DNA of 64,000 bases from a virus (IMGVR_UViG_3300005437_000011); one strand, 5' to 3'; counted from the stretch's first letter, positions 7,658 through 60,963 are shown. Numbers and translations are program-made. Notes: generated from the sequence alone by a model not told the origin.

Positions 7658-8039
7658 ACCCTTTACGAGCGAAAGCATGTTCGGAACCACGACCTGTCAT
7701 CAACCACTCGGCATCCACGTCGAGCGCTTCGGCTATTTGGAGCAGGAAGAATGCCGAGATGGCTACTCCTCGGCGGCCGGCAACGATGCCCGCCACTGCC
7801 CCTTTAGTTTTTCTCAGGTGGTCTTCGATGTCTCGGTAGGTGATTTGCCGCGACTTGCAGATCACCTCAATTCGAGACGCGACACCGTCACCCAGGTCGA
7901 GCGCCTCCTGACTGGCCGGGTTTCCGTCTGGGTTCCTGGAATATGCACTGATTGCCATCACACCGATGGTGGTCACGTGACCACCAGGAATCCAGCTGAG
8001 CGCGTGATCAGTGGAAGCGCGCTGCACTTTTCTCGGCAA
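7512..8039 (-). CDS. HTH XRE-family regulator
   Basis: ISAFFLLQIAEALDVDAEWLMTG is an HTH. The likely real start is the internal Met near 7958, which places the GGTCAcgTGACC palindrome (7969-7984) just upstream. Confidence 0.45.
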   Translation of the reverse strand: MPRKVQRASTDHALSWIPGGHVTTIGVMAISAYSRNPDGNPASQEALDLGDGVASRIEVICKSRQITYRDIEDHLRKTKGAVAGIVAGRRGVAISAFFLLQIAEALDVDAEWLMTGRGSEHAFARKGFRLCGVSPSSSLWPPALPRLVEPLVSRSEPRPRSRKKRPQQPARRRMP

Positions 8040-8658
8040 TTGCCGAACTTATCGAAGGAATTTCGTCATGACTGTGACTGAAAAGGCTGGCTGGTGGGTC
8101 GTGGTCATCCTGGTGGTGATCGCGCTGTCGATGGCGTTCTCGGCAGTGGTCAGTGCTGATGTGCCGACGCTGGCAGATCGCGTCGCTGCTTTAGTCCCGC
8201 GCTTCGGCTCCAAAAAGGTCGAGCTCGTGGACGCGCAGGAGTTCGGTGGGGCGGTTGATACAGCCTGCAAGCACGACCGCGAGTGCGCCGCACGGTTGGT
8301 TACTCAAGCAATCATGGAGTCCGGTCTCTCGGCTGCCGTGGCTCGGTCCGAATACACAGAGCATCAGGGCGACGCCTACACCGACAAGAACGGAGTTCGG
8401 CTACATCGCGCTTGGGGCCTGTTCCAAAACTGGAAAAACCTGCACAACGCCGACGTGTGGGGATCCGACGATCTCCTAGTGCAAGCTCGTGCGGCTCGGG
8501 CCATGCAGCTCGGTGCGATCGTCGAATGTCGCGCATTCCGCGAGGTGCAGCCCGAAGTCGGCATGTGGCGCATCCTTGCAGGCCGAGGCTGTACCGGAAT
8601 GTGGGATGGGGCAGAGAAGCGGATGCAACTTCTCGCGCGGATAAGGCGGGCTCTGTGA
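8011..8658 (+). CDS. membrane-anchored protein with lytic-transglycosylase-like ES...GLFQ motif
   Basis: TM helix AGWWVVVILVVIALSMAF. MESGLSAAVARSEY...RAWGLFQNW resembles the SLT catalytic motif. The start is probably the internal Met near 8068. Confidence 0.35.
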   Translation: MEARCTFLGNCRTYRRNFVMTVTEKAGWWVVVILVVIALSMAFSAVVSADVPTLADRVAALVPRFGSKKVELVDAQEFGGAVDTACKHDRECAARLVTQAIMESGLSAAVARSEYTEHQGDAYTDKNGVRLHRAWGLFQNWKNLHNADVWGSDDLLVQARAARAMQLGAIVECRAFREVQPEVGMWRILAGRGCTGMWDGAEKRMQLLARIRRAL

Positions 8659-8770
8659 CCCCCGGCGATCAGATCCGCTACTGGCGGCGCATGGCGGTGC
8701 AACTGGCCTTGTTCAACATCTTCACCGTTGCTGTGATGACGGCAGCCGTTGCCCTCGGAGCATTCAGCAA

Positions 8771-8962
8771 ATGAGCTCCAAACCCGGCGAAATAGCTGCC
8801 GCCATAAAAGCGGGCTACCGCATCGCAGTTCACAATCAGTTCTTCCCGTTCACTTCTCGCGCCCCGGAGGAGGGGATCGTTCACGCTGTTGTGGACCACG
8901 GAGCTCGGGCCATCTTCTGCTCGCAAGAGTGGAAGGACAAGCTCCCGAAGGGGGACGCCTAA
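8771..8962 (+). CDS. hypothetical protein
   Basis: 63-aa ORF. Its TAA stop overlaps the next ATG. Confidence 0.3.
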   Translation: MSSKPGEIAAAIKAGYRIAVHNQFFPFTSRAPEEGIVHAVVDHGARAIFCSQEWKDKLPKGDA

Positions 8963-9150
8963 TGCATCGAAATGAGTTCATCCTGTGGGTGCTTGGTTTG
9001 CTGCTCGGCGCGAGTCTTGTTGGCGGCGTCATCTACGTCGACTACCGGCATACAATTCGGAACGACGACACACGGCTTGTGTGCATGCAGCTACACGGCG
9101 ATTGGGTCAGGCAGGGCTCTGATTACGTGTGCGTGGGGCTCCAGCGATGA
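8962..9150 (+). CDS. small membrane protein
   Basis: MHRNEFILWVLGLLLGASLVGGVIYV contains a TM helix. Confidence 0.3.
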   Translation: MHRNEFILWVLGLLLGASLVGGVIYVDYRHTIRNDDTRLVCMQLHGDWVRQGSDYVCVGLQR

Positions 9151-9461
9151 CAACGCTTGAAGTCCTCCGCGGGGCGCGCGCGAAGATAGCGCAGGGCTGG
9201 TGCCAAGGAGCGTCTGCGCGCGACGCCGATGGTCAGCTGACGGGCGTGACACAACCGGATGCATGCTGCTGGTGCGCTATCGGAGCCGTCTATGCAGCTG
9301 CGCCTCTTGAACCTGATTCAGGTGACGCCGCGTTCGAATACTTAGCGAGAGTGACACCGGGGCACCTGATTGGCACGTGGAACGACGATCCGTCACGCAC
9401 TCAAGCAGAGGTGCTGGCGTTGTTCGACCGTGCAATCGCTCAACAAGAAAGGGCTGCGTGA
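9129..9461 (+). CDS. conserved phage protein (GWCQG...WCAIGA family); paralog of 52985..53388
   Basis: AKIAQGWCQGASARDADG...CCWCAIGAVYAA closely parallels RLVQGWHQGQYMARAADG...SWCLLGAVYAA in the later gene. Confidence 0.5.
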   Translation: MRGAPAMTTLEVLRGARAKIAQGWCQGASARDADGQLTGVTQPDACCWCAIGAVYAAAPLEPDSGDAAFEYLARVTPGHLIGTWNDDPSRTQAEVLALFDRAIAQQERAA

Positions 9462-13449: not shown

Positions 13450-14090
13450 CCGCCGCGATGGAAGCTGTCGTCCGACCGGCACGCAAATCGCATAGCGTAC
13501 CCAGAAGCGTCGACACGCCTGCTCTCTCGTTTTTGGAGGACGTCCTGCCACGCCTGGTGCCAATGGCGGACTGGGATGTCATCGGTAGCCGCGTCTATTT
13601 TCTCGAGTGCGACTCGCGTTTCGTGAAAATCGGCTGGAGCCAGGATTTCCAGGAACGATTGATCGCCTTGCAATCGGCCAACGCCTTGCGCCTTCGGCCA
13701 GCGGCGATTCTGATCGCTGATCGCTCGATGGAGAAATCGCTGCATTCGCATTTCCAAGAACTTCACGTTCGTGGTGAATGGTTCGCGCTCCACGGTACGC
13801 TGAAAGAATTCCTATCGCACCCAACGGTTGAAGCGGCCCGCGGCCTGTCGCCTGAAATTATTGCGATGGAGCCGCAGAGCCAACCGGACTTGCTCGATAG
13901 CAAGATCACCATAACGGCGACTGGCCCGAGAATTTTCCTCGACTTGGATTCTGAAACCGAAGGCATGCGCGCCTTTCTAGATCTGGAAGCCGCGGAGCTG
14001 CACGTCGCGACCATGCAGCGGGCCATTGCTGCGGTCCGTGCTGCCAGTCCAAAAGTCGGCCCATTGACCACTTCGGAGCCACGCCCGTGA
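13446..14090 (+). CDS. T5orf172 / GIY-YIG-like domain protein
   Basis: VYFLECDSRFVKIGWSQDFQERLIALQS...HVRGEWFAL matches the T5orf172 (MUG113-like) motif pattern. Confidence 0.5.
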   Translation: MTAAMEAVVRPARKSHSVPRSVDTPALSFLEDVLPRLVPMADWDVIGSRVYFLECDSRFVKIGWSQDFQERLIALQSANALRLRPAAILIADRSMEKSLHSHFQELHVRGEWFALHGTLKEFLSHPTVEAARGLSPEIIAMEPQSQPDLLDSKITITATGPRIFLDLDSETEGMRAFLDLEAAELHVATMQRAIAAVRAASPKVGPLTTSEPRP

Positions 14091-14383
14091 CCCAGTCCGA
14101 GCTCCACGCCCTGCTTGGCTCCCGCTGGGCCCTCCCCATCCTCACTGCGCTTGTTGTCAGTGAGGATGGGGCCCTCCGGTTCGGCCAGCTGAAGGCTGCA
14201 ATTTCGGTCAGCGGGCGGATGCTGGCGCAGACGACACGCGCTCTGGCGGATGCCGGCCTGATGTCTCGCGTGGACGAGACCGCGCGCACCGGGGTCCACG
14301 CTGTCATCTACTCGCTCACTGCCCAAGGCCGGACCATCCTGGATTGGTCTGCTGAGTGGCCGAAAACCGAAGGCACGCCATGA
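14087..14383 (+). CDS. HxlR-family winged-helix transcriptional regulator
   Basis: LGSRWALPILTAL...RFGQL...SGRMLAQTTRALADAGL...YSLTAQG fits the HxlR signature. Confidence 0.55.
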   Translation: MTQSELHALLGSRWALPILTALVVSEDGALRFGQLKAAISVSGRMLAQTTRALADAGLMSRVDETARTGVHAVIYSLTAQGRTILDWSAEWPKTEGTP

Positions 14384-16448: not shown

Positions 16449-16905
16449 GGAAGAAACAATGAACGGGCCGGTTTGCCGTTGGTGCGGTGAAACGCTGGAA
16501 CAGCACACCGAGTCACGGACACCGGATGCGCCGGTACCGCGATGCCCATGCGTCGGGCTGCGTTCTGGTTTCCTGGCGCGCGAAGCGAAGGATAAAATCG
16601 CGCCCCGTTTCTTCAGCCCTATCTTCGTCCACCACCGCGGGTCCTGGCACCATGCGCCGGAGACCTACTCCAACGGCGCCGACACCGCGTGTGGGCTGTC
16701 GCGTGTGCCGGGAGAGCTCATTGCGCTCGGCTATTTTGCTGGGGCCTGCTCCCTTGGTCGATTTCGCTCTGCTGTTGCCCAGGAGTTTAGCGCGGAGATA
16801 GCCAGAGCGCCGATGTGTTCGGGGTGCTTCCCTGGCCTCAGAGTCGCCAGGCTATCAGCCAATCTCGCCGACTTCGTAGCGCGCGGTGGTCAGGTGACCG
16901 CATGA
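16441..16905 (+). CDS. Cys-rich hypothetical protein
   Basis: 154 aa. CRWCGE...CPC. The GGTCAggTGACC palindrome overlaps its stop. Confidence 0.4.
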   Translation: MSKEETMNGPVCRWCGETLEQHTESRTPDAPVPRCPCVGLRSGFLAREAKDKIAPRFFSPIFVHHRGSWHHAPETYSNGADTACGLSRVPGELIALGYFAGACSLGRFRSAVAQEFSAEIARAPMCSGCFPGLRVARLSANLADFVARGGQVTA

Positions 16906-17231
16906 CCGGGCCCAGCTTTCACGCGCCCCATGCTCACGATCTGCTGATTTCCTTGGCCTGCTTTGCGCTAGGGATCACACTCGACCTGGCGGCATGCAGA
17001 CTGTTTCGGCGACCCCTTAGAACGCGACCGCTTCTACCATTCATCGCTGTCCTGCTCTTCTTTGACTGCACAGACGGTCGCTGGCTGCACCTAGCAGCGT
17101 TGCTTGTCTACATGTTTTACGACACGTTCCCCTGGGACCGGTGGCGGAAGAAGTTCGGCTCAAAGCTTTCAGCGCTCACTGACGTGGTGAAGGCGTCCCT
17201 GCGGCGACAGCAGACGGAGGCCTTCTCGTGA
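16902..17231 (+). CDS. membrane protein
   Basis: ATG inside an ATGA overlap. Two or three TM helices. Confidence 0.35.
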   Translation: MTGPSFHAPHAHDLLISLACFALGITLDLAACRLFRRPLRTRPLLPFIAVLLFFDCTDGRWLHLAALLVYMFYDTFPWDRWRKKFGSKLSALTDVVKASLRRQQTEAFS

Positions 17232-17515
17232 ACAATCTCCCCATCGTTCTAGTCCCCCACCCTCACGTCAGTGTGGACGCCAACGTGCTCGGCGGAAGCC
17301 CTTACGTCAGGGGGTCCCGAGTCCCGGTGCGGCGCATCTACGCTTTCTACCAAGCTGGCGCCTCGTTCGAAAAGCTCGCGAAGCGCTACCCGCAGCTCGG
17401 TCCGGCCAAGGTGCTCGACGCGCTCTCGTTCGCGCTCGACAACGAAGACGTCATCAAGGCGGACTGCGAACGCGAAGAGGCGTTTCTTGCGGGGCACGGC
17501 GTGAAGGCAAAGTGA
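17228..17515 (+). CDS. DUF433 domain protein
   Basis: GGSPYVRGSRVPVRRIYAFYQAGASFEKLAKRYPQLGPAKVLDALSFA matches the DUF433 motif (GxxxIRGTRIPV...YP.L). Confidence 0.5.
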   Translation: MNNLPIVLVPHPHVSVDANVLGGSPYVRGSRVPVRRIYAFYQAGASFEKLAKRYPQLGPAKVLDALSFALDNEDVIKADCEREEAFLAGHGVKAK

Positions 17516-18003
17516 TGGGCATCCGGTACTTAAACAAGAACGAGACCTTCGAGGTGGCAGAAAAGCCGCCACGGCGAAAAGCTGGCTACCAGGGTGGAGC
17601 GAAGAGATCGGGCTTCACGGAGGCGCAGATCGAAACCCTTCAGTTCTGGCGAGACTTTCAGAGCGCGCACGGTTTCCCGCCCAGCATCCGTGAAGCGGCG
17701 GAGCACTTCGGCGGCCTTTCATCATACGCAATCACTTGCCGATGCAAATACATCATCAAAAAGGGCGCCATGAAGATGGCGGGTAGCGAAGATCAATCAA
17801 GGAGGGTCTTGCTAACGAGCCTCGGTCGGTCGCTGACGCGCGGTAATGTCGCCGGCATTGCGCCTCGCCCGCTCTACATCCAGACAGCCCATGGCTTCGT
17901 TGGAGCTGTCACGCAGGAACGAAAGTGTGAATGCGGCCGGAGCTATTTCACCGACAACGCTCTGTGTGCCGAGTGCGCCCGTGGTAATGAGGCGGTCAAG
18001 TGA
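17512..18003 (+). CDS. LexA-type DNA-binding-domain protein (no peptidase domain) with C-terminal Cys cluster
   Basis: FTEAQIETLQFWRDFQSAHGFPPSIREAAEHFGGLSSYAITCRCKYIIKKGAM resembles the LexA N-terminal wHTH. Confidence 0.45.
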   Translation: MMGIRYLNKNETFEVAEKPPRRKAGYQGGAKRSGFTEAQIETLQFWRDFQSAHGFPPSIREAAEHFGGLSSYAITCRCKYIIKKGAMKMAGSEDQSRRVLLTSLGRSLTRGNVAGIAPRPLYIQTAHGFVGAVTQERKCECGRSYFTDNALCAECARGNEAVK

Positions 18004-18311
18004 CCACTCCGTTCAATCCAGAGCACTGCTCATGCGATGAATCCAAAGCCTGGAGAACGCGTGCTCTGGCGGCCGAGCTCTCCCTGCGCTACGCCCGAGG
18101 CCAGCTCCGCCGGCTGCTTGAGCATTTCGATCGGGTCCTGGACGAGATGCCGGGTGAGGACCTTGAAACGCCGGAAGGCGTACTCGGCGCGACGCATCGA
18201 GCGGACGAGCCGCTTCGAGACGCAGACAGCATCTGGAAACTCGGAAAAGTAGTCGATTGGATGCTGCTACGTGTCCGTGGCGACGGCTCGCCGAAATCGG
18301 AGCGACCTTGA
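18000..18311 (+). CDS. hypothetical protein
   Basis: GTG start. The GGTCAagTGACC palindrome spans the stop/start junction. Confidence 0.35.
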   Translation: MTTPFNPEHCSCDESKAWRTRALAAELSLRYARGQLRRLLEHFDRVLDEMPGEDLETPEGVLGATHRADEPLRDADSIWKLGKVVDWMLLRVRGDGSPKSERP

Positions 18312-20291: not shown

Positions 20292-20569
20292 ACCGCGCGT
20301 GCGTCACCACCCACATGAGCTCACCCGGCCGGGTAGCCACTGCTGCGGGCGATGGTGCGGGTTTCGTGGCCGCAATGATGCCCGTGGCGATTTTGGTGGT
20401 CAGTTGACCACTCGATCGCATACAAAGAACAGCCGCGCGACGCTTCGACTCGTCCGCGGCCATGGCCCGAGAAAGGGGCTCAAGTGAAATACCACAGAAC
20501 GTCAATCCCTGGTAACGCAATCGACCGCAGTAAATATGGCGGTCATGTGACCACCGACGGGGACATCTG

Positions 20570-24625: not shown

Positions 24626-24873
24626 TGGCACTCCTTGCCCAGCTCATCCCCGAGATGCGATCTCTGCGAATAGCCGAGATCGAGTTCGATCGCGCCGAAC
24701 AGGCGCTCATCGCGACCTACGAGCCGCGTCACGCCATGAAACGTTGGGCAGCGAGAGACCGATACCGAACCGCACAGCGCGCTCTTGATGGTGCGCTGGC
24801 TCGACTCGAAAAAAGAAAATGCGAACTAGCGGGGAGACGCCATCTGCGCGTAGCCTCGGCCGTTGTCACTTGA
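24625..24873 (+). CDS. hypothetical protein
   Basis: ATG overlaps the dnaB stop. Confidence 0.3.
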   Translation: MALLAQLIPEMRSLRIAEIEFDRAEQALIATYEPRHAMKRWAARDRYRTAQRALDGALARLEKRKCELAGRRHLRVASAVVT

Positions 24874-24903
24874 CCACCACGTCACGAGAGGAAACCAGAC
24901 ACC

Positions 24904-28875: not shown

Positions 28876-29648
28876 GGCTCGCATGGGTCACTGACCCGCA
28901 TCTCGATCATGCTGGGCACGGCAAAACGATCGACTTTGCGCAGAAGACGGCGGCTGTCTCGGACGCCTGCGTCATCACCGGAGACATAGGCACCGCGCGC
29001 ACGGTCGTGCGATTGCTCGAAGTCTTTCAGCGCAACTATCGAAAGCCGATTTGTTTCGTGCTGGGCAACCATGACTTCTACGGTGGTGAATTCGCCAGCG
29101 TTGCGCGCTCGGTTCGGAAAGCATTCGGTTGCTCGTATCTTGATTCCGGTGCGGTCTTCCGCCTCACTCCCGGTGTAGACCTTTGCGGCGTAGACGGATG
29201 GTATGACGCCCGGTTTGGATCCCCAGAAACCAGTAGCGTTCAGCTGAACGATTGGTCGGAGATTCAAGACCTTCGTGAGTGCGTTCAGTCGCGGACGTTG
29301 ATTCCTGCGCTACGCCTGATTGGTGACCACTTTCATCAAAAGGCATTGGAGACGCTCGCTCGCGCCACGGCGAAGCGAGTCATCTTCGCGACTCACGTCC
29401 CACCGTTTGCCGAATCGAGCACCTACAACGGCAAACAGAGCGACGCGAATTGGCTGCCTTGGTTCAGTTGCAAGGCGCTCGGGGACGCCCTTCGTGAATG
29501 GGCAGAGATGAACCCAGAACGCGAGATCGAGGTGGTCTGCGGTCATACTCATGGCCGGGCAACATTCCAGCCATTACCGAACCTGACCGTGCGCACTGGG
29601 TTTGCCGAATACGGGGCGCCGTGTGTCGAGATGATTCTCGACATTTAG
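28872..29648 (+). CDS. calcineurin-like metallophosphoesterase
   Basis: VTDPHLD, ITGDIG, VLGNHDFY and CGHTHG. GTG start in a GTGA overlap. The 507-aa ORF-track call is a composite. Confidence 0.6.
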   Translation: MRLAWVTDPHLDHAGHGKTIDFAQKTAAVSDACVITGDIGTARTVVRLLEVFQRNYRKPICFVLGNHDFYGGEFASVARSVRKAFGCSYLDSGAVFRLTPGVDLCGVDGWYDARFGSPETSSVQLNDWSEIQDLRECVQSRTLIPALRLIGDHFHQKALETLARATAKRVIFATHVPPFAESSTYNGKQSDANWLPWFSCKALGDALREWAEMNPEREIEVVCGHTHGRATFQPLPNLTVRTGFAEYGAPCVEMILDI

Positions 29649-29687
29649 TGGTCACATGACCGCCAACAGCGTGAAAGACTCGACACA

Positions 29688-30122: not shown

Positions 30123-31057
30123 GATGCGAACACGGCTTCGAGCCTGCCTCCGTTCTGTGCCCGCTTGGGTGCCATGGCAAACCAGCGGCGAAGGTCGAGT
30201 CGGAAACTGTTCCGACCACCAGCAAACGAGCCAATCTGGTCGACATGTCTGGTACAACCGTCGCTGGTTGCCGAGTCGAAGCCAGAGAGCCGAACGGTGA
30301 CGGTAACGCTCGCTGGCGATGCATCTGCGCCTGTGGGGAACACTTCGTGGACTTCGGTGTTGTTCTCCGTGAGAAGGAAAAGCGCGGCTACACGGCGTCG
30401 TGCGATGGCTGCAAAGCAAAGCGCAAGCTGGATCGGATTGGTAAGCCAAACCCCGCCCTGAAGGCCCACCCCATCCCACCGGAACACGCAGAGCCAGCGC
30501 CTGTACGGCGCATATTTCCCGAGCCTAACGTTGTCGTTGAGAGCCGAGTTCTCCGTTGGTGGCGGCTCGAACTCGACGCCAAGGGCAGCGTCATCAGCTG
30601 CACAGCGGTTGAGCACCGAGGCGAGGCTGGAGAGCGCCAGTTCCTATACGTCGAGGCTTACGATCAGAAGGAAGCTGGGCGTCTCGCGTGGAACGCCTAC
30701 TGCCGACTCGCGCAACAGCGGCACCGGGCCAAGCTGACACGGGAGGGCTGCTGCCCATGGTGTGGGCGTAAGCAGGACAGGAAGCCAGGCCTACGGTGCA
30801 ACACCTGCCTTGCTGGGGACCGAGAGCGAGCTGCTACGAACAAGGCGATCAAAGCCGGCCAGAACGTCCCCGCCCCCGACGCGCAGGTAACGCGCGCCAA
30901 CCGGCTGCGGTCCGAGCGCGCTGAGTACCGGCTGCAAATCCTCGGCGAAGTACGAAAGGTCGCGATAGAGCGGAACCCGCGCGAGTTCCTGCGCTGGCTT
31001 GACGAGGAGCTCGGTCTCGAAGGCGGGCAGCTGACCGCTAAGCAGGCGGCGTGCTGA
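30119..31057 (+). CDS. hypothetical Cys-rich protein
   Basis: MSGTTVAGCRVEA...RWRCICACGEHFVDFGVVL...ASCDGCKAK shares a domain with the previous gene. Confidence 0.45.
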   Translation: MRCEHGFEPASVLCPLGCHGKPAAKVESETVPTTSKRANLVDMSGTTVAGCRVEAREPNGDGNARWRCICACGEHFVDFGVVLREKEKRGYTASCDGCKAKRKLDRIGKPNPALKAHPIPPEHAEPAPVRRIFPEPNVVVESRVLRWWRLELDAKGSVISCTAVEHRGEAGERQFLYVEAYDQKEAGRLAWNAYCRLAQQRHRAKLTREGCCPWCGRKQDRKPGLRCNTCLAGDRERAATNKAIKAGQNVPAPDAQVTRANRLRSERAEYRLQILGEVRKVAIERNPREFLRWLDEELGLEGGQLTAKQAAC

Positions 31058-38522: not shown

Positions 38523-38620
38523 CTGATACGCTCGTCGTGGCCTGTTAACGCAGGCCCTGCGCCTCGAACGTGTGATAGCGTTGCGAGGCGCGTCTATTCT
38601 TTAGCATAAACGGTGGTCAA

Positions 38621-38866
38621 ATGACAGAAGACGGAAGCATGTCGTTCGAAGAACTGATCGAGAATCTCGTTTACTCCGCATCCGCCTCAGTGGCGGTCCC
38701 GAACCGTGAGGTGCCAGCCGCGCTTGCCTGGGCAGCGGGTCGATTGACTGAACGGTACGGAGAGTCCGCGTTCGCCTTGCTTCTCCGGCGGAGAGAACTG
38801 GAGCGCGCCCTGGCCAATCTCCGAGACAGTCTCACAGCAGCATTCGCTGGGCTGGGGCTGGCATGA
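38621..38866 (+). CDS. hypothetical protein
   Basis: The ATG lies inside the GGTCAaATGACA palindrome. Confidence 0.35.
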   Translation: MTEDGSMSFEELIENLVYSASASVAVPNREVPAALAWAAGRLTERYGESAFALLLRRRELERALANLRDSLTAAFAGLGLA

Positions 38867-39591: not shown

Positions 39592-41294
39592 GCACCAAGT
39601 TTCTAGGCACCATCAAGTCGTTCAAAGGCAGCTGGATCGTCGAATGTGAGCCACACGTACTGATCCGTTTGCGCAGGGTGTTCCCGCGTATGTCCAGGCC
39701 GCGACCGCGCGCCGACGGAAAACGAGACGTGGTCTGCATTGCAAACACGCCTGAAGTCTGTCGGGATTTGGAATGGTTTGCAGGGCGATTCCCGCTGGAA
39801 CTCAGCAAGGACGATGAGTACCGACTGACGCAAAAAGCGAACGAGCATCGCGAAGGCGAACACATGGTTCAGCAATTGATCGCTAAGGAGATCAAGCCAG
39901 CTGAGTTCCGGATGGCGCTTCCGGCGCGCGATTATCAGAAAGTTGGCGCACAACTCTGTGTGTTGACAGGCGGAACAATTCTCGCGTTCGACATGGGACT
40001 AGGCAAGACGCCTACTGGTATCTACATGTTGATGGATCCTAAAACGCGGCCCGCTTTGGTGGTGACCATGACTCACTTGCCAAGGCAGTGGGAATCCGAG
40101 TTTAGGAAGTTCGCTCCACAGCTCCGAACGCACGTCATCGACTCGACTCGGCCGTACGACATTGCAAAGCGCTGCGGTGGCCAGATGCCGGACGCCATAA
40201 TCATCTCATATAGCAAACTCTCTGGATGGAAGGACGCGATTCGCGTTCGCTCTTTCATTATCGACGAAGCGCAGGAATTCCGGAACGGAACAGAGACGAA
40301 GAAAGGCGAAGCAGGAGCGGCAATTGCACGCGCTGCGTCGTATCGCTTGGCTTTAACCGGAACTCCTTTCGTAAATATGGGCGCCGAGATTTGGAACATT
40401 TACGAGATGGTTCGTCCAGGTGTCCTCGGCACATATCGTGAGTTCACTACCGAATGGTGCGTGGGTGATTCGGATAAACCAGGCAAAGTGAAAATCAAGG
40501 ATCCGGTCGCGTTCGGTTCGTATCTACGTCACGCCGGACTGATCGACCGCAAGACGAAGGCGGATGTCGGGCGTGAATTACCGAAATTGAACAAGGTCGT
40601 TCAGTTTGTCGATTATGACGTAGCTCACCTGCAGAGCGTCGAGCGCAAGGCAACGGCGCTAGCTGAGGTACTGCTGTCGAAAACCGAGCGCACGCGCGGC
40701 GCGAAGATGCAGGCGGCGGAAGAGTTGAGCAATCTCGTCAGGCAAGCGACGGGGGTCGCCAAGATGCCGTGGGTCGCGGACCTCGTGCGCATGCTGGTCG
40801 AAAGCGGGGAGCCGGTGCTCTGCTACCTGTGGCATCGGCAATGCTACGCTATCGTCAACGAGCGTCTCAAAGATCTGAATCCGGCGATGTACACTGGATC
40901 GGAGACTGAGAAGGAAAAGGCGGAATCGTTCCGACGGTTCACATCAGGCGAGACGGACGTGATGTTGATGAGTCTCCGCGCCGGACAGGGGCTCGATGGC
41001 TTGCAACACAGATGCTCGACAGTCGTCAATGGCGAGCTTGATTGGTCACCGGCAATCCACGATCAAGGGGTCGCGCGGGTATATCGCGATGGGCAAACGA
41101 AGCCAGTATTCGTTTATTTCCCGCTTGCTGACTCAGGCTCAGATCCGATCGTTTCGGATATTTTAGGAGTGAAGCGAGCGCAACTCGAAGGCGTCCGCGA
41201 TCTTTCGACCGGCACGGACATCCTACCGACAGCGGACACCGATCACATCAAGAAATTGGCTAAGGCGTACTTGTCCAAGAATGCTGTCAAGTGA
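39480..41294 (+). CDS. SNF2-family DNA helicase
   Basis: ILAFDMGLGKT (motif I), FIIDEAQEFRN (motif II), LALTGTPF (motif III), LMSLRAGQGLDGLQ (helicase C). The true start is probably TTG 39588, just after the VRR-NUC stop. Confidence 0.8.
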   Translation: MHPVTRARDHQKYIGQSAARAERKAVAGGRHPSGVLLSTKFLGTIKSFKGSWIVECEPHVLIRLRRVFPRMSRPRPRADGKRDVVCIANTPEVCRDLEWFAGRFPLELSKDDEYRLTQKANEHREGEHMVQQLIAKEIKPAEFRMALPARDYQKVGAQLCVLTGGTILAFDMGLGKTPTGIYMLMDPKTRPALVVTMTHLPRQWESEFRKFAPQLRTHVIDSTRPYDIAKRCGGQMPDAIIISYSKLSGWKDAIRVRSFIIDEAQEFRNGTETKKGEAGAAIARAASYRLALTGTPFVNMGAEIWNIYEMVRPGVLGTYREFTTEWCVGDSDKPGKVKIKDPVAFGSYLRHAGLIDRKTKADVGRELPKLNKVVQFVDYDVAHLQSVERKATALAEVLLSKTERTRGAKMQAAEELSNLVRQATGVAKMPWVADLVRMLVESGEPVLCYLWHRQCYAIVNERLKDLNPAMYTGSETEKEKAESFRRFTSGETDVMLMSLRAGQGLDGLQHRCSTVVNGELDWSPAIHDQGVARVYRDGQTKPVFVYFPLADSGSDPIVSDILGVKRAQLEGVRDLSTGTDILPTADTDHIKKLAKAYLSKNAVK

Positions 41295-41298
41295 CCGC

Positions 41299-44913: not shown

Positions 44914-45119
44914 TCGCGAACGAACCGACTACGGATGCAGCTAGGATTGCTCGTCTTGTGTCGGTCGTAACCAAGCTGCTTCAGTGCTGACACCTCAGCC
45001 GATGCTTGAGCCATGGGCGGAGTGGCGGTGACCACTACCGTTCTGGTTGATTTGTCAGGCATCAAGATCGTGCACTCCCATTCTTGGGTTTTCATTTCGC
45101 CATCTCCGCGCGGCACCAC
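44889..45119 (-). CDS. hypothetical protein
   Basis: 76-aa ORF. Confidence 0.3.
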   Translation of the reverse strand: MVPRGDGEMKTQEWECTILMPDKSTRTVVVTATPPMAQASAEVSALKQLGYDRHKTSNPSCIRSRFVRECPTELSK

Positions 45120-46678: not shown

Positions 46679-46942
46679 TCAATCTCTCTGTTCGCTGGGC
46701 GGAAGCGCCCGGTTACGTGCCTCGTAGGCATCTTCGGCAGCTGCGGCGCAGACCTTCCGCGCATGGGCCGCGGACAGCTCAACGCATTTGAGGTGCTGAT
46801 CCAGTGCCCAGCCGCCCACGCCTCGCTTGACTGCGCTCTTCAGGTCGGCAGTGTTTTCGATCACGGTGGCGACAGCGTCGGCTGGCGTGCGATTGTCCGC
46901 GGTTCGAGCAGGGGTTCCCATGGTGTTCTCCTTGGCGGTCAA
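46679..46942 (-). CDS. hypothetical protein
   Basis: The start is preceded by an aaggaga RBS and the GGTCAatTGACC palindrome. Confidence 0.4.
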   Translation of the reverse strand: MTAKENTMGTPARTADNRTPADAVATVIENTADLKSAVKRGVGGWALDQHLKCVELSAAHARKVCAAAAEDAYEARNRALPPSEQRD

Positions 46943-46950
46943 TTGACCAC

Positions 46951-47247
46951 CTAGTAGCCGAGCCAGTCGCGTGCCGACCGCATGGTCGGGGCGATCGTTT
47001 CTTCAACCGATTGCCAGCCAGTGTCCACATGGTGGAGCTCGGTCCGGACGGTGATGGATGAGCCATCCTCAGCCACCCGGACGACTGTGGGGCGACCGCT
47101 AGCGACGTCGTGCTGGTTCAGGAAGGCGACGACGAGATCGATCGGACGGGAGACCAGCCTTCCAGCTCGGCCGCCGGGGAACACGTCGTGAGAGTTTGGG
47201 TCGTTGGATTGTATGGGGAAGGGCATAGTGTTCTCAGACGTGGTCAA
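46951..47247 (-). CDS. hypothetical protein
   Basis: The start is preceded by the GGTCAagTGACA palindrome. Confidence 0.4.
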   Translation of the reverse strand: MTTSENTMPFPIQSNDPNSHDVFPGGRAGRLVSRPIDLVVAFLNQHDVASGRPTVVRVAEDGSSITVRTELHHVDTGWQSVEETIAPTMRSARDWLGY

Positions 47248-47258
47248 GTGACAACTTC

Positions 47259-48787: not shown

Positions 48788-48793
48788 GAGCTA

Positions 48794-49147
48794 TTGTCGG
48801 GGCACATGGTGAAAGTGACGCTAGCGAGAATCAAGAAACAGGCGGCCGCTGCCGCTGATGAGCGGCGAGAACCATCCGAGAGATTGATGTGGTCCACCGC
48901 ACTGGCGGAAGCCCACATTCCGGAATGGGTCCCGGAAACGAGAATCCGAGACTTCCAGAAGGCCTACGCTCTTCAGCTGGTGAAGCTGGGTTTCGCGAAG
49001 CCAGCTGGAAAGCCTGGTAAGGCGACGAAGCTACCGCGCCGACTTCTGACGGCGACGGAAGACCAGTTCGCCGACATGGATCGGCGCGTGACGGAATCCG
49101 GAATGATCTCGTGGTCAGCCTGGGCTCTGAAAAAACTTTTACGATGA
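48794..49147 (+). CDS. hypothetical protein (first gene of the rightward block)
   Basis: 117-aa ORF. The start may be the Met at 48806. Confidence 0.4.
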   Translation: MSGHMVKVTLARIKKQAAAAADERREPSERLMWSTALAEAHIPEWVPETRIRDFQKAYALQLVKLGFAKPAGKPGKATKLPRRLLTATEDQFADMDRRVTESGMISWSAWALKKLLR

Positions 49148-49198: not shown

Positions 49199-49519
49199 AT
49201 GAACGCCGAAACGCTGCACACCCCGATGCTACTTGGCCGGATTGAGGGCGAGGAGATCCGTTCGCGCTATCTGACCAGCGAAACGCTCTGCGAGGTGTAC
49301 GGGCGCCTAGCTGACGGCTGTGCTTATAGCGTGATGGTCCGGCATGCTGGATCCGGTTTCGTGGTCCGTGTCAGCGACCAACGAAAAGTCCAGCAGCCGA
49401 CGCGCACGGGCCCGGACTACTACTGGAACAAGGCGAAGGTTTCTCGTCACTCGAGTGAGGCGGCCGCTGTGAAGGCAGCCGGCGGCCATCTCACGGCATT
49501 TCGGGAGCTAAGCCAATGA
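49199..49519 (+). CDS. hypothetical protein
   Basis: Start MNAETLHT at 49199, after the palindrome at 49171-49182. The N-terminal part of the ORF-track call (from 49163) is a translation of the palindrome. Confidence 0.4.
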   Translation: MNAETLHTPMLLGRIEGEEIRSRYLTSETLCEVYGRLADGCAYSVMVRHAGSGFVVRVSDQRKVQQPTRTGPDYYWNKAKVSRHSSEAAAVKAAGGHLTAFRELSQ

Positions 49520-50554: not shown

Positions 50555-52348
50555 ATGATCACAATTGACGACGCCCGCACGCGGGACATGGACGACGCCA
50601 TCGAGGTCGAAGAGACCACGGATGGCTGGATCGTTCGTGTCGCCATCGCCGACGCAAGCCGTCTCGTCACGCCGGGCAGCGAGCTGGACGTGGCGGCCCG
50701 CGCCCGGGGCAACACGCTGTACTTCGGGACCGGTAACAGTCCAATGCTGCCGCGTGAGATCGGCGAGTGGCAGCTATCGCTCTGGCCCGGTAAGACCAAG
50801 CACGCCATCACGGTCGAGATGCGCCTTTCCCAGAATTTGGGGCTGGATGAAACAACGCTCAGCCTCGGTAAGATCGTGAGCGCACACAAGGTCGCCTATG
50901 CTCAGGTTCCGTCGCTGCTCGCGGGCGCTCCCGCAGTAGAGGATCTCGGCCCGTTGCTCAATTCGGCGCGCAAGCTCGCGCTCGGTCTCCTCAAGAAACG
51001 CCGTGAGTCAGGCGCGCTCGTCTTCTATGATCTGAACAACGGTTGGGTGACGACTGAGGAAGGCTCGGTCAAGAAGCTCAAGGACCACACGGAGACGATC
51101 GGGTACATCATCGTTCAAGAGCTGATGGTTCTCGCGAACACCGCGGTGGCGCTGTACGCCATCGATCACAAGCTGCCGATGCTGTTCCGCAACCACGAGA
51201 CCAGGGGCGGCTCGGCGCCCGATCGCGAGGAGATCCAGGCGCTCATCGCTTCGGGCGCGGAGAACCCGGTCATTGACCTGGAATCGTTTCAGCACCGCAC
51301 CCACAAGCTGTTCAAAAAGGCTGAGTACGGATCGATGCTCACTGGGCACGCCGGCCTTAGCGTCCCGGCCTACCTGCACTTCACCTCACCCATTCGCCGC
51401 TACGCCGACCTGGTGGTCCATCAGCAGTTGCGATCTCACCTCAAAGGCGAGCCGCTTCCACACAGCGAGGAGGGCCTAGCGGCGGTTGCTGCCCATCTGA
51501 ATGAACTCGCGAAGAAGGATGTGGAAAGCAACCGAGCGCACTTCAAGGGCCGCGACGAGTCGCAGGCTAAGAAGCAGGTCGAAGCGCGCAAACTTGACGG
51601 CTTGAACGCCAAACAGTTCGAACGTGTGGTGAAGGTCGAGGTCCGCTCTGGGGAAAGCCCGTCAGAAGCACTGGTGGAGGCGTGGGAACGCCGGCTTGTC
51701 GATGGCAGCGTGCCGACCATCTGCATGACGACCGTGCTCATGCTGGGGATCGAGGTGGACGGAACCGGCCTGAAACGTGTACCGGTTGCTGACGGCTGGG
51801 ACGTGATCAAGACGCTGACGATCGGGTATCTCGCCGAGCACACGCCGGAAGCGATCTCGATCCTCGCCCAGGCTGGCGCACTCGGCTGGCCAGACGTCAG
51901 GATCGATATCGTCTCGACGGGTCCAGCACACGCGCCGCGGTGCACCGGTTCCGTCGCCATCAAGCTAGATGGCGGGTTGGTTAGGGGTATATCAGTCGGG
52001 AAAACGGTTAGAGTTGCAGAACAGCGCGCAGCAGTATGCTTGCTGGCAGAACTCGCGATGGTCGCTACCCCGCAGTTCGAAGCACTCGAGCCTCTACCGC
52101 CAGCACCGGTCATCGAAGCGAAGCCGCGCCTCGACCTCAACAAGCACCCCGTTTCCCAGCTCATGGAGCGAAGCCAAGCAGAGCGTCAACCGCCACCGAA
52201 GTTTGATTTCACCGTAAAGGGTGAGGCGCACCTCCCCGTCGTGACGTGCACAGCGAGCTTTCTGGGAACGACGGTTTCGGCGGTCGCAGCGTCGAAACAA
52301 GAGGCGAAGACGGCTGCGGCCAAGCTGCTACTGGAGAAGGTCGAATGA
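50555..52348 (+). CDS. RNase II/R-family (RNB domain) exoribonuclease with C-terminal dsRBD
   Basis: IDDARTRDMDDAI is RNB motif I. GHAGLSVPAYLHFTSPIRRYADLVVHQQL is motif IV. C-terminus VVTCTASFLGTTVSAVAASKQEAKTAAAKLLLEK is dsRBM-like. No cold-shock or S1 domain is evident. Confidence 0.7.
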   Translation: MITIDDARTRDMDDAIEVEETTDGWIVRVAIADASRLVTPGSELDVAARARGNTLYFGTGNSPMLPREIGEWQLSLWPGKTKHAITVEMRLSQNLGLDETTLSLGKIVSAHKVAYAQVPSLLAGAPAVEDLGPLLNSARKLALGLLKKRRESGALVFYDLNNGWVTTEEGSVKKLKDHTETIGYIIVQELMVLANTAVALYAIDHKLPMLFRNHETRGGSAPDREEIQALIASGAENPVIDLESFQHRTHKLFKKAEYGSMLTGHAGLSVPAYLHFTSPIRRYADLVVHQQLRSHLKGEPLPHSEEGLAAVAAHLNELAKKDVESNRAHFKGRDESQAKKQVEARKLDGLNAKQFERVVKVEVRSGESPSEALVEAWERRLVDGSVPTICMTTVLMLGIEVDGTGLKRVPVADGWDVIKTLTIGYLAEHTPEAISILAQAGALGWPDVRIDIVSTGPAHAPRCTGSVAIKLDGGLVRGISVGKTVRVAEQRAAVCLLAELAMVATPQFEALEPLPPAPVIEAKPRLDLNKHPVSQLMERSQAERQPPPKFDFTVKGEAHLPVVTCTASFLGTTVSAVAASKQEAKTAAAKLLLEKVE

Positions 52349-53663: not shown

Positions 53664-53943
53664 ATCCGGCGATCACCGACCATCGAACAGGATCAGCCGG
53701 CTTGCTCACCGTCTTTGCCCCCGGGATCCTGCGTGATCCCTGGTCTACGCGCGGATGTGATCGATTGGTTTCGTCCCGAGTTTTGCCTCAAGGCGCAGCG
53801 GTGGTCACTTGACAGCGCCACCCGGTGACCCCTAAATCGAAGGCGCCCCGGCATCCGCGTGAACGGACCCAGGGCATTGGCCAAACCTGTTCGAGAGGTC
53901 TGACGATGAGCAAGATACATGAGCCGCGCGCGAATGGCGACCA

Positions 53944-57304: not shown

Positions 57305-57413
57305 ATCGTGGCGGGCATCGCGGTCTCAGGGTGGCGTTTCGCCGCGTGGTCAGGTAATGTGGTGTCACTTGACCACGGTAGGCTTTTGCCCGTGGTCACC
57401 GGAGGATTCGCGA

Positions 57414-57769
57414 TGCCCGTCTCGTACGTCAGGAAGTCCCCGCCTACCCCGCTACCGAGCACCCTCGGAAGCGGTCAACTGACAACCATTGCCGAGAACC
57501 CCTACGTTCTTAGCGGGGAAGCCCGGCTGGTCGGGGATCTGTACTACGGGGAATGGCGCCGGGCAGAGGGCAAAGCCAGCACCTTCGTAGCGGCTCGCCT
57601 GGTCGATTGGGATCAGTGGCGCAGCGAGCGCGAGGTCGCGGAGGGGCTACTGGCGAAGAACCTGATCGAGGCGATAAATCCTCTGGGGTCCAGCATGCTT
57701 CTGACCGAGAAGCAGGCGCGAGAGGCCGAAGAAGACCCCGGCAAGCCGCTCGGGAAGGCGCTGTACTAA
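57414..57769 (+). CDS. hypothetical protein
   Basis: Start MPVSYVRK, placed after the palindrome at 57363-57374. Confidence 0.35.
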
Positions 57770-57862: not shown

Positions 57863-58798
57863 ATGACCGAGATTGCAAGCGCGATCGAGCTGGACCCGAT
57901 CGCTAGTGAGTCAGTTGCCCCATCACCTACCCTGTCTCTCGTGCCGCCCGTAGCGGTCGAGATACGATGCGAGCTTCCAAAAGAGCGTCGACATCGCCCC
58001 GCCCGAGACGGCAACTATGATGAGCAGCTCGAGTGGCTGCTCCTTTGCGGTGACGCGGCGATGGGAGCGAGCGGCACGCTGGCCGGCGTGGTCTCCCAAA
58101 TCGAGCGCGGGTCGGTGGGCGGGACCGGGAACCTGGACGAGAACGGCTGCTACAAGCACCCATTTACCGACATGCAGCTCGGTGTCGGTGTCCTCGGAAT
58201 CGGGGAGGTTGAGCTCCACCGGCACCTGATGGCAGCCTGGCGCCTCGTCCCAGCCGCCACTCAGAACACCCTCTGCAAGCGGTACAGCGCGCCAAGAGCG
58301 CAGTACCGGGCAGACCAGGGGTTCGGCGCCAAGGACCGCTACGTCGAAGGCTCAGACGGCCGCGTGGGCCAGCACGACCCAACCCGGACGGGTAGCAACT
58401 CGAACACCAACGAGGGGCTCGGGGTGTACGCCGCCCTGGCCTTTGAGCTTTGCGACGACGCTGCCCAGCTGTTCATCGCCTGCGTCGAGCCCGCCCCGGT
58501 CCGAAAAGGCAAAATCAACCGGTCCGAGCAGACACGTCGGGCGAAGCTGGTTCGGGAGGCGCTGAACCGAGCTCACGCTGCGGACGCCGACGCCCATGAC
58601 ATCTGGTTTGCGGCCAAGCGCGCCGTGCCGGGCCTCAGGAGCTTCCAGGAGCGCACGGGACGCGCCCGCTGTCACTTGCCCACCGGAGCGCGCCAAGGCG
58701 GCCAGGGGCGGCGTGGCGGGGTCCTGATGCGGATGAGCGAGGCGGCCTTCGCTGAGGCGATGGAGCGCGGGATGGCGGCTGCCCAGGCGGCGGAATGA
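57863..58798 (+). CDS. hypothetical protein
   Basis: 311-aa ORF. Confidence 0.45.
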   Translation: MTEIASAIELDPIASESVAPSPTLSLVPPVAVEIRCELPKERRHRPARDGNYDEQLEWLLLCGDAAMGASGTLAGVVSQIERGSVGGTGNLDENGCYKHPFTDMQLGVGVLGIGEVELHRHLMAAWRLVPAATQNTLCKRYSAPRAQYRADQGFGAKDRYVEGSDGRVGQHDPTRTGSNSNTNEGLGVYAALAFELCDDAAQLFIACVEPAPVRKGKINRSEQTRRAKLVREALNRAHAADADAHDIWFAAKRAVPGLRSFQERTGRARCHLPTGARQGGQGRRGGVLMRMSEAAFAEAMERGMAAAQAAE

Positions 58799-59253
58799 CC
58801 CAGTTCAAACTCACCCGCCGGAACTGGCGCTGCGAAAAGCATCGGCCGCCGGGCTGCGAGGTCCTGCCGTCCGCGCATCTCGGGGTCGTTAACTGCCCCT
58901 GCGTCGTCTGCGGCGCGACGCCGACCGATCTGGTAGCGCGCGAACCCGAGCCGCCGAACTCAGCCGCCACGGACGTCGTGGGACAGCCGGTTGAGGTCAG
59001 AGAGTCCGGCCGAGCGCCCACAAACCTCCACGCCATCGACACCACCCGGTCGGAGTACTCGGCGGTCATCATCCAGCACCTCGAAGTCCTCCTGGAGCGG
59101 GCCAAGCGCGACGAGCTCCTGTGCCTGACCTGCGTGGTCGACGACGGCCAAAACTGGCAGGCGACATCGGCCGGGCGGCTGCGGAAATCGGACGCCCTGT
59201 ACGCGTTCGAGCTCTGGAAGCGGGACATCTGTTTTCCGGTGGGCGAGTCGTGA
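58795..59253 (+). CDS. hypothetical protein
   Basis: 152 aa. CPCVVCG. Confidence 0.4.
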   Translation: MTQFKLTRRNWRCEKHRPPGCEVLPSAHLGVVNCPCVVCGATPTDLVAREPEPPNSAATDVVGQPVEVRESGRAPTNLHAIDTTRSEYSAVIIQHLEVLLERAKRDELLCLTCVVDDGQNWQATSAGRLRKSDALYAFELWKRDICFPVGES

Positions 59254-59513
59254 ATCACGCTGAATGGCTGGCCGCACGCGAGGCGGAAATCGACGGGATG
59301 TGGGATTTGTTGGGAGCGACATTCGTTGACGAGCCGGAGGACGGGATAGAGACACCACCTGGTGCCATCGCGCCCTCAGATGTGGCCGAGATGCTCTACT
59401 GTCGAACAGGGATCCCCGGATGGCGCGTCTGGATCTCGCTCGAGGGTGAACTTGAGATTTTACCACCGCTGCGTGACCCGCTGGCGACTGACGGGACGGA
59501 GGGCGTGCTTTGA
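59250..59513 (+). CDS. hypothetical protein
   Basis: GTG start in a GTGA overlap. Confidence 0.3.
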   Translation: MNHAEWLAAREAEIDGMWDLLGATFVDEPEDGIETPPGAIAPSDVAEMLYCRTGIPGWRVWISLEGELEILPPLRDPLATDGTEGVL

Positions 59514-59884
59514 CTCCAGAGGATTTCTGTTTGCGGTTTGCGGGCATGGACGCGACGCAGCGCCGTCAAGTCGTTCGGAGTTGGTTCAGCCCGAGCACGG
59601 ATAGCGGATTTGTGCACGAAATAGTCAAGGACTTGGAGGCCGCATGGCCTGACGCAGGGTACGGCAAACGCCTCATGCTCGTGCAATTTGCCCGAGAGAC
59701 ATCAAACGGCGGAGTGGCTGGGAAGGTCGGGCATTGGGCAGCCAATCGACAGCGATCAGTAGAAAGCGGCGGCTTTATCACTGCGATGATGGCGACCCGT
59801 GAGCTGCATGGCGCAGCGCGTGGTGCTCTGCTGCGCGAATTGGGTTGGCATCCAGACAACTTCAGCAATTCAAGAGGCCGGTGA
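59510..59884 (+). CDS. hypothetical protein
   Basis: 124-aa ORF. Confidence 0.4.
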   Translation: MTPEDFCLRFAGMDATQRRQVVRSWFSPSTDSGFVHEIVKDLEAAWPDAGYGKRLMLVQFARETSNGGVAGKVGHWAANRQRSVESGGFITAMMATRELHGAARGALLRELGWHPDNFSNSRGR

Positions 59885-60285
59885 GGCCCCGCCGCGATCG
59901 TTGGTTCCTGCTCGTGGAACTCGCCAAGATTCTCGAGCCCAGCCACCCGAAGCTCGCCAGCATGACGCGCGCGACGCGCCGGAAGTACGTCTACCGCCTC
60001 CTCCGGTCGCTTGAGCGCAGGAACGCCACCACCTACGCGAAGCGGGTAGGGCGCGCGCTCTACGTGAGCAAGCGCGCCCTGGAGGATCTGTTGCCCCAAG
60101 AGACGCTCAAAGCGATCGACGACCTGGAGAAGAACACGATCGAAATCGGCCTAGAATGCAAGGACCTCCGCCGCCGTGTGAACGACCATGGTTCACGCAT
60201 CAGGATTCTTGAGCAGAAACAGAAACTTACCGCCACATTTATAGCCCAGATGGCGGAGCTCGACCGGGACGCGACTGGGACTTAA
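59881..60285 (+). CDS. hypothetical protein
   Basis: GTG start after the upstream stop. C-terminal coiled coil. Confidence 0.35.
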   Translation: MRPRRDRWFLLVELAKILEPSHPKLASMTRATRRKYVYRLLRSLERRNATTYAKRVGRALYVSKRALEDLLPQETLKAIDDLEKNTIEIGLECKDLRRRVNDHGSRIRILEQKQKLTATFIAQMAELDRDATGT

Positions 60286-60963
60286 CCGCCCATGGTTTCG
60301 TCGTGAACATTGAGAGCGCCGACGTAGGACGGTACGCTCCGAAGTGAGCGCGCAACGCGCGTCATGCCAGCCGAGCAGGGGAACCTGCCCATCAGCACAT
60401 ACCGCCGCCGCTTGGCTGAGCGCCGCGGACAATCTAATACGCATCGACGACGCCTTAGCGTGGGTTGACCGGTTCGAATCCGGTGCGATGCGCCTCACTC
60501 ACCTGAGCTGACGCACCCCTGCCCCGGCACTCTTCCGGTTCTGTCCCGGCACCGAGCGCTGAGCCCAGCCCCACGCTCCTGTCGTCGTCTGGATCCGCCG
60601 CATCCGGATAAAGGTCAGGTGCTCTGCAGTCCCCGCCCCAGCCGTCGGAGTCCCGAGGTGCTGGGTGTAGAAGTCGGCTAACGGTCGAGCTTTGGTTGTT
60701 TCCCTCATGAGGGGACGGCGTAAGCAATCCGCGGGCCAAGATGTCATCTGACCACTGACCACCACCTACCAGCCGCCACGATGAGCCCTAGCAAGCCGCA
60801 ACAGCGCCGCACTCGCACCCTGTACGCTGACCAGCACACCCCAGGTCAGCACCGCCCAGAACCCGCTCCAACCATGGGGTGGCCCACACTCAAGGCGAAG
60901 ATCGGGGAATTCGGGATTGCCCGGCAGATGCGCCGGAACGATGCCGAAGACAGGGCGAGCCGG

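Follow-up and report, generated by a model that had tools for sequence, protein, structure and literature searches.

A dispersed palindrome at gene junctions of an uncultured soil phage, a probable operator for a dimeric regulator

The 64,000-nucleotide stretch of viral DNA analysed here (IMGVR_UViG_3300005437_000011; hereafter the window, at its full length) carries many dispersed copies of the palindrome GGTCA-NN-TGACC, most of them at junctions between genes. This palindrome probably serves as operator for a regulator that binds DNA sequence-specifically as a dimer, is most likely encoded by the phage and acts at the junctions of cistrons and modules. The conclusion follows from four properties taken together: a dyad with degenerate half-sites, selective placement at junctions, conservation of position among relatives, and restriction to one lineage. 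We infer from sequence that a protein binds, that it does so as a dimer and in which direction it acts. An earlier note, also made from the sequence, had proposed a dimeric DNA-binding protein with many dispersed targets, and such a protein would fit the dyad, the independently varying arms, the unconserved hairpins, the kept positions and the single lineage described below.

The core GGTCANNTGACC occurs eight times in the window as an exact match (0.05 expected) and 20 times when up to one mismatch is allowed (1.87 expected); no shuffled sequence reached either count. The extended 16-mer GYKGTCANNTGACMRC is present in 13 exact copies against 0.01 expected. With a position weight matrix (PWM) we found 18 sites scoring at least 16.6, the next best match scoring 13.5, and Markov simulations gave 0.33 expected sites at a score of at least 14. 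These counts uphold the claim of the earlier note that at least 13 copies are present, and show that they are enriched. All 14 copies that it listed exist, three of them with coordinates that were 1-2 bp off (20398, 29650 and 53803 are correct, not 20397, 29649 and 53801), and its list lacks one exact copy, at 1895, as well as the good copies at 57473, 130 and 58670. The half-site that it placed at about 45025 and the GTG at 18000 and ATG at 38621 that it saw embedded in sites are as it described them, and the two copies upstream of the replication module are indeed there, their spacing being 143 bp and not 144. Site density is about one per 4 kb in this phage and its relatives. The sites are listed in Table 1.

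Alignment of the good copies defines the conserved unit as a 16-18-bp dyad, (R)GYKGTCA-NN-TGACMRC(Y), of which GGTGGTCACGTGACCACC is the 18-mer form. All conserved positions of the dyad are symmetric. Each half-site reads nTGAC(C/A), its TGAC core being invariant; positions -2 (G) and +13 (C) are nearly invariant too, and a weaker R/Y symmetry is seen one base outward. A literature search with the motif string returned only papers on the oestrogen response element. No direction can be read from the copies: the sole asymmetry, a T at position 0 in 14 upstream versus 5 downstream half-sites, is not significant, and no conserved asymmetric flanking element was found at any position in 34 oriented sites.

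Is the palindrome read as double-stranded DNA or does it fold? The arms vary independently. At the pair 0/11 there are 18 G-C, 12 T.C, 6 G.A and 1 T-A combinations, and at the pair -1/12 there are 8 C.A versus 1 C-G, as expected for half-site degeneracy and not for a stem. An RNA or DNA hairpin acting as a terminator, as an mRNA-stabilising or processing element or as a structure that sequesters start codons would suit the location at cistron junctions, where the start codon sometimes lies within the site. It would also suit the stability of the perfect copies, which fold at -13.8 kcal/mol (z = -3.6), and the presence in the phage of a ribonuclease with RNB and dsRBD domains. We nevertheless consider it very improbable. 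Predicted energies spread from -13.8 to -1.9 kcal/mol across the sites, and several sites that are conserved in position fold like shuffled sequence; for instance, the site at 24864, conserved in three phages, folds no better than its shuffles. No compensatory changes were found in the stem, the variants breaking the pairing instead. The loop would have just 2-4 nt, the sites have no terminator tail, a terminator scan marked one of the 18 sites as terminator-like, and an Rfam search gave no match to the sites. What is conserved is the sequence and not the structure.

The centres of 13 of the 18 sites lie within 30 bp of a gene boundary, as defined by metagenome gene calls. In 5000 trials of random placement the mean was 2.7 and none exceeded 9, so the junction bias that had been noticed by eye is real. 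The sites are packed into the junctions as tightly as possible. At many sites the upstream gene takes its stop codon from the TGA of the right half-site; for about a quarter of the family's sites, gene calls start the next gene at the central NTG. The distance from the edge of the site to the nearest start codon ranges from -6 to +175 nt, and for most sites from -6 to +39 nt. Three sites lie inside genes and one at a convergent junction. Sites occupy nine of the 30 intergenic gaps of at least 20 bp, and neither of the divergent promoter regions (3637-3728 and 48701-48886) has one; on these grounds we rejected the idea that they are the general transcription signal of the phage.

The same geometry tells against the sites being sigma-70-type promoters in which each half-site is a -35 hexamer. 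The half-site nTGAC(C/A) does resemble TTGACA, but with start codons -6 to +39 nt from most sites there is no space for a spacer, a -10 element and a leader. The best -10 match at a spacing of 16-19 bp scored on average 3.10, versus 2.85 at random positions, consensus promoter scans placed no promoter at any site, and one site stands at a convergent junction. Promoters of this kind are hardly credible here.

A scan of viral contigs for the 16-mer returned two fragments of a 137.6-kb contig, IMGVR_UViG_3300049929_000026, with proteins 50-92% identical to those of the window; the roughly 43 kb fetched from it (REL) contains 16 sites. Homologues of the DUF433 protein of the window led to L187, a 133-kb contig in an NCBI metagenome-assembled genome (MAG; JAWVHA010000389.1) with five sites, and to the shorter contigs L189, L200 and L201 with two or three sites each. 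A homologue of the sigma-70 region 4 protein of the window led to L206, a 76-kb contig (SRR29078296_2253) with two sites. Sites in late-gene gaps are found in L206 and also in L082, which has two of them and has structural genes in common with L206. In total, eight motif-bearing mosaic genomes have 50 sites in 189 kb, whereas 24 motif-free relatives, which are loci with a counterpart of the window's terminase, 261-amino acid protein, 121-amino acid protein, recombinase, loader or even DUF433, gave a single marginal match in 389 kb. The motif is a property of one network of mosaic phages, neither of a gene module nor a common repeat, and the difference in frequency points to a lineage-specific trans factor. 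Scans for relatives with the LexA-like protein, a 91-amino acid protein and the recombinase gave nothing useful, and a metagenome scan with DnaB returned just homologues of about 30% identity.

Comparison with these genomes shows that many site positions are kept in REL and L187. The sites at 17994, 24864, 29650, 38615 and 41285 have counterparts at REL 3911, 9455, 20527, 28944 and 33056, respectively, the last of these following the SNF2 gene; the site at 58670 corresponds to REL 39308, inside a coding region, and the degenerate copy at 31025 to REL 21908. The pair at 20398/20541 corresponds to a REL pair at 5719/5869, although DUF5131 and DUF559, which flank it in the window, are absent in REL. 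L187 retains a site before its replication module, at 13401, and another, at 17196, between the homologues of genes 24625-24873 and 24904-25413, the proteins being just 50-66% identical. The non-coding region of about 250 bp before the replication module can be aligned in the window, REL and L187, with site 1 intact in all three and site 2 in two of the three. Positions are kept in these phages although the flanking genes are only 35-90% identical or have been replaced. The kept positions and the aligned region show that purifying selection acts on the sites themselves.

Could the sites instead be module-boundary sequences, that is, short homologies for cassette exchange between phages, located at junctions through recombination history? 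Nearly all sites stand next to a point where synteny between the window and its relatives breaks. Besides the loss of DUF5131 and DUF559 around the site pair, there is a 5-kb insertion in REL beside REL 20527, and five genes are replaced after REL 10762. These genomes are, however, mosaic everywhere. Moreover, recombination needs no perfect dyad with a free NN centre, and sites persist where both flanks are conserved, as at 24864. As the explanation of the sites this is quite improbable, but it is compatible with an operator function; cassettes could travel with their operator.

If the sites are operators, each subunit of the regulator would read one half-site, G-Y-K-G-T-C-A. The protein would occupy selected junctions in long co-directional gene arrays, often over the region of the upstream stop and the downstream start. 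It would most likely repress, acting as a barrier to RNA polymerase arriving from the block upstream or else covering weak internal starts; these modes are the likeliest because many sites lie where no promoter fits (stop/start overlaps, the convergent junction). Some 15-20 gene blocks might come under one regulator in this way, including replication, recombination, helicases, nucleotide metabolism and the region before the packaging genes. Such a role would be stoperator-like, and the regulator would be separate from the cI/Cro-like switch of the phage. The cI/Cro-like divergent region (3637-3728) has its own GGTAC/GTACC repeats and none of the GGTCA-type sites, which implies a putative second, separate regulatory circuit there.

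Three points weigh against an operator of this kind. No binder was found, every testable predicted DNA-binding protein failing to track the motif cleanly. A site at the regulator's own promoter is usual for such repressors, and no such arrangement was recognised. Finally, the same palindrome occurs in an unrelated phage lineage of 50-54% GC (lineage B: L057, L062, L077 and L103; for example, contig IMGVR_UViG_3300032282_001003), as clusters of TGTGGTCAnnTGACCACA. BLAST, Pfam and family hidden Markov models detected no protein common to lineage B and the window, so this occurrence requires convergence, an undetected shared domain or a host factor.

The palindrome can occupy a classical operator context. 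In the prophage L019, unrelated to the window, two copies stand 31 bp apart between divergent genes, beside an Xre-type helix-turn-helix (HTH) gene, which is a classic operator layout. The lineage-B type of cluster is found in L057, L062, L065/L125, L077, L103, L118 and L123, with four to seven copies within 3-4 kb of small early-type genes, on either side of a conserved 127-amino acid protein that weakly matches the BEN domain. Two AT-rich contigs from giant-virus MAGs (L031 and L092) have three overlapping tandem copies of (G/A)GTCACGTGACC within 50 bp, probably an unrelated CACGTG-type element.

Which protein might bind the sites? The most intriguing candidate, although a tentative and unlikely one, is the free-standing sigma-70 region 4 protein encoded just upstream of terS and terL (61071-61337). 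Two copies of it would lie on abutting inverted -35-like hexamers, [GGTCAn][nTGACC], and would act as a site-specific regulator or as a tether or competitor of RNA polymerase at -35 sites without a -10. The protein matches Pfam Sigma70_r4 (E=6e-11). Its recognition helix, SRERIRQVE..ALRKL (GVSRERIRQVEFDALRKL), is almost the same as the helix with which primary sigma factors read the -35 hexamer, and the best PDB matches are region 4 of sigma-A/RpoD. The invariant core TGAC equals positions -34 to -31 of TTGACA. The protein probably starts further upstream than called, taking in a CxxC..H..C knuckle as in its homologues, and this Cys/His knuckle, present in the homologues and in the longer open reading frame (ORF) of the window, could mediate dimerisation. 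L206, which has a homologue 70-79% identical, carries the motif, and both gene and motif are missing from L001 and L002, the closest relatives by terminase.

Several observations do not fit this candidate. The invariant positions -2 and +13 and position 12 are outside the known reach of sigma region 4, and a distance of only about 5-6 bp between the hexamer centres would be uncommon for a pair of HTH domains. The match of the 4-bp core was made post hoc, several motifs having been tried. No region 4-like ORF was found in the fetched parts of REL, L187, L189, L200, L201 and lineage B, none of which spans the terminase-proximal region. The position before terS would equally fit a late activator or packaging helper (PMC3753634). 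Homologues of the protein are found only on a few metagenomic contigs, and deposited phages have no homologue of either this or the DUF433 protein. That the phage captured region 4 of a host primary sigma factor as a small zinc-knuckle protein, whose dimer reads paired inverted -35-like hexamers without a -10, is rather unlikely. If true, the sites would be genome-wide 'promoter-half' operators that gate gene modules, or that tether or compete with host RNA polymerase, a new re-use by a phage of a host promoter-recognition module on a principle undescribed for any phage.

A host protein might also bind the sites, the phage exploiting a host regulon; an example would be a Polyangiaceae regulator like the chromosomal DUF433 protein. 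Chromosomal genes of Polyangiaceae/Myxococcales MAGs encode proteins 65-76% identical to the phage DUF433 protein, with the HTH region invariant, and a distant relative of the helicase-loader gene was found in a Polyangiaceae MAG. The host of the phage is therefore probably a myxobacterium of the family Polyangiaceae, and the phage DUF433 gene itself looks like a captured host gene that may serve as a pointer to the host clade. DUF433 is the most conserved protein across the motif-bearing relatives (76-88% identity, exceeding DnaB in L187), and the palindrome also occurs in unrelated phages, as a host factor would allow. The co-occurrence of DUF433 and motif is, however, partly circular because L187, L189, L200 and L201 were found through DUF433. 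No motif lies near the chromosomal DUF433 loci, a phage contig with a 74% identical DUF433 protein (L198) has no site in 19 kb, and the motif is missing from L203, in a Polyangiaceae MAG, and from L139-L150, relatives with probably the same host clade. A host binder is accordingly improbable. The phage DUF433 protein was itself set aside as a binder, being not discriminating: its HTH is equally invariant in L198 and in the host copies. On the chromosomes (loci L190-L197) the DUF433 homologues have a conserved housekeeping context of hisS, ruvX, mltG/yceG, DUF433 and pgm.

The three candidates named in the earlier note all fared poorly. The cI-like repressor is disfavoured, as there is no site of PWM score 8 or more in 3000-4800, a range that includes its divergent region. 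The LexA-type winged-helix protein (17515-18003) was rejected because its REL orthologue (L138 3657-3920) lacks the winged helix and the motif is kept there all the same, and because L187 has no homologue at all. This orthologue has 87 amino acids, made up of the N-terminal segment and a C-terminal Cys4 cluster. It is in the window's phage only that a LexA-type winged helix of about 60 amino acids is inserted in this small conserved protein (N-terminal MGIRY..FEV..KPP, C-terminal Cys4), which looks like a recent domain insertion. HxlR is likewise disfavoured, not being conserved in the motif-bearing REL and L187, where an unrelated PadR-like gene is present instead. The PadR-like winged-helix protein (L138 274-624, L187 8335-8664) has an N-terminal hydrophobic segment and stands roughly at the position of HxlR in the window.

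Two other candidates did no better. The DnaA box is a 9-mer, TTWTNCACA, with T at position 4, and is read by DnaA domain IV; in the half-site position 4 is always A and position 9 varies, so the sites are not DnaA boxes, and no other motif-bearing locus has the DnaA_C-like protein (26758-27087). A 109-amino acid protein (16902-17231) is found only in motif-bearing genomes but is a small predicted membrane protein. It and its homologues in REL, L187 and L201 adjoin DUF433 and have a conserved amphipathic C-terminal tail, PW..WKKKLGS.LS.LT.V.KA.L.RQ..EAF. Among the annotated genes of the window, which leaves out about 25 kb of the genome, none encodes a ParB_N-domain protein; in L206 a ParB_N gene stands 86 bp from the strongest site. 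A gp71-like repressor did not turn up in Pfam, PHROG and NCBIfam scans of selected genes, no search having been aimed at it.

How do these sites compare with known dispersed operators? The stoperators of cluster A mycobacteriophages are asymmetric 13-mers bound in an orientation-dependent manner by a monomer via two domains, an HTH and a 'stoperator' domain; more than 20 copies lie in promoters and short intergenic spaces, and the proposal is that one regulator silences many transcription units through them, in part by halting elongation (PMC9283540). The present sites are not members of the stoperator family because that family is one of asymmetric 13-mers with a monomeric two-domain repressor and orientation dependence (PMC9283540). 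They do share with the system of the L5 gp71-type repressor the many dispersed copies (18 in 64 kb here) and the positions kept among relatives. They differ from it in being a 16-18-bp dyad with no significant orientation signal, and in the host, which is probably a myxobacterium here and is an actinobacterium there. Start-associated sequences, known from cluster K mycobacteriophages, are asymmetric motifs whose short distance to the start codon hardly varies. The likeness to them consists in a repeated motif beside the start codons of a subset of genes; the variable distance (-6 to +175 nt) and the convergent-junction and intragenic sites set the present motif apart. The resemblance to both systems that had been proposed from the sequence is thus confined to placement.

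In anatomy the closest analogue is provided by the conserved inverted repeats (CIRs) of the temperate Streptomyces phage phiC31, palindromes of about 17 bp present in many highly conserved intergenic copies and bound by the phage repressor. Their sequence is not known to be related to the sites here, and one copy lies at the promoter of the repressor gene itself, whereas no copy at the regulator's own promoter was recognised in our case. In P1 (C1 operators), IncP plasmids (KorB OB sites) and N15 (centromere repeats), one element-encoded protein coordinates many operons through 4-20 dispersed sites; the KorB and ParB-type sites are palindromes of 13-16 bp and the P1 operators are asymmetric. 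The present sites resemble the KorB/ParB-type sets as palindromic dispersed operators, with a ParB_N gene annotated in L206 and none in the 64-kb window.

Detailed knowledge of genome-wide operator sets under one regulator comes from just a few cultured phages, namely cluster A mycobacteriophages, P1 and phiC31. The sites described here would extend the same dispersed-operator design, with the difference of a perfect dyad, to uncultured soil phages of about 90-135 kb that probably infect Polyangiaceae, hosts with almost no phage biology. They would provide a map of regulatory units as well as a sequence tag for recognising members of this phage network in metagenomes, and they pose a clean biochemical question, namely which protein from a short candidate list binds the 18-mer.

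The phage is tailed and uncultured and comes from a soil or rhizosphere metagenome; the window is one part of its genome and overlaps contigs Ga0207692_10000041 and Ga0207692_10000026 of JGI sample 3300025898 as well as Logan run SRR5456975. An 89,685-bp JGI contig has two of the window proteins at 99-100% identity and is probably the whole genome of this phage. The window has a GC content of 61% and is 92.7% coding. A DNA-level search of deposited phages found no close relative, and the best match of the terminase is 42% identical.

Table 1. Palindromic sites, candidate binding proteins and other features of the window
Feature	Position	Strand	Remarks
Site CGTCACGTGACC	130..141		PWM 19.2; at called minus-strand gene start
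Site GCGGTCACTTGACCAC	1893..1908		Exact 16-mer; stop/start junction of two minus-strand genes
Site GTGGTCACGTGACCAC	7969..7984		Inside 3' part of ORF 7677-8081; alternative GTG start 8011 follows after 29 nt
Site	16886..16901		3 nt upstream of ATG 16902; heads cassette membrane protein - DUF433 - Cys4/LexA-type winged-helix protein
Site	17992..18007		Contains TGA stop of 17515-18003 and GTG start of 18000-18311
Site pair	20396-20411 and 20539-20554		143 bp apart; in conserved non-coding region 20292..20569 (+) before replication module
Site	24862..24877		Between 82-amino acid gene (TGA stop within site) and 169-amino acid gene; kept in three phages
Site	29648..29663		In 39-bp gap before 29688-30122
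Degenerate site	31025..31036		PWM 13.5; at position of a strong site in REL
Site GGTCAAATGACA	38615..38626		Contains ATG 38621
Site	41283..41298		Convergent junction after SNF2 helicase gene (TGA stop within site); not a promoter position
Half-site GGCGG-TGACCAC	45021..45034 (about)		Isolated
Site	46935..46950		Lies 16 nt upstream of start, minus-strand gene 46679-46921
Site	47240..47255		Lies 16 nt upstream of start, minus-strand gene 46951-47226
Site	53801..53816		In 325-bp gap preceding DEAD-box helicase gene
Site	57363..57374		Gap before 57413-57769; rough counterpart REL 38057
Site	57471..57486		Within 5' part of 57413-57769
Weaker site	58670..58681		PWM 16.6; within 3' end of 311-amino acid gene
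Site	60742..60753		Long gap upstream of sigma-70 region 4, terS and terL genes
DUF433 HTH protein	17228..17515	+	Weak candidate binder
Sigma-70 region 4.2 protein with N-terminal Cys/His knuckle, about 88 amino acids	61071..61337	+	Speculative candidate binder; called start 61134
cI/Cro-like divergent region	3181-4707		Four Xre-type HTH genes
cI-like gene	3181-3636	-
Three consecutive Xre-type HTH genes	3729-4707
tRNA-Met (CAT)	5891-5966
tRNA-Pro (CGG)	6150-6232
Tyrosine recombinase gene
Long gene array		+	HxlR (14087-14383), DUF433, LexA-type winged-helix/Cys4 protein, DUF5131, then replication module
Replication module		+	DnaB, RuvC, phosphoesterases, SNF2 helicase
Gene array	41.3-48.7 kb	-
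Last part of window			RNB+dsRBD ribonuclease, DEAD-box helicase, sigma-70 region 4 protein; terS/terL at end

Some minor observations concern the gene content of the window. The two tRNA genes are enclosed by a 318-amino acid ORF (5494-6450) from the gene caller of one assembly, and this ORF is probably spurious. A 1-bp indel relative to the JGI contig Ga0207692_10000041 lies somewhere within about 5.5-7.7 kb of the window. The RNB protein (50555-52348) is an exoribonuclease of the RNase II/R type with a double-stranded RNA-binding motif fused at its C terminus, an uncommon arrangement in a phage. The window has two DUF4942 paralogues, one on each strand, at 42399-43340 (-) and 49516-50388 (+), and the first is adjoined by a gene (41299-42402, -) with a faint AcrVA2-like match.

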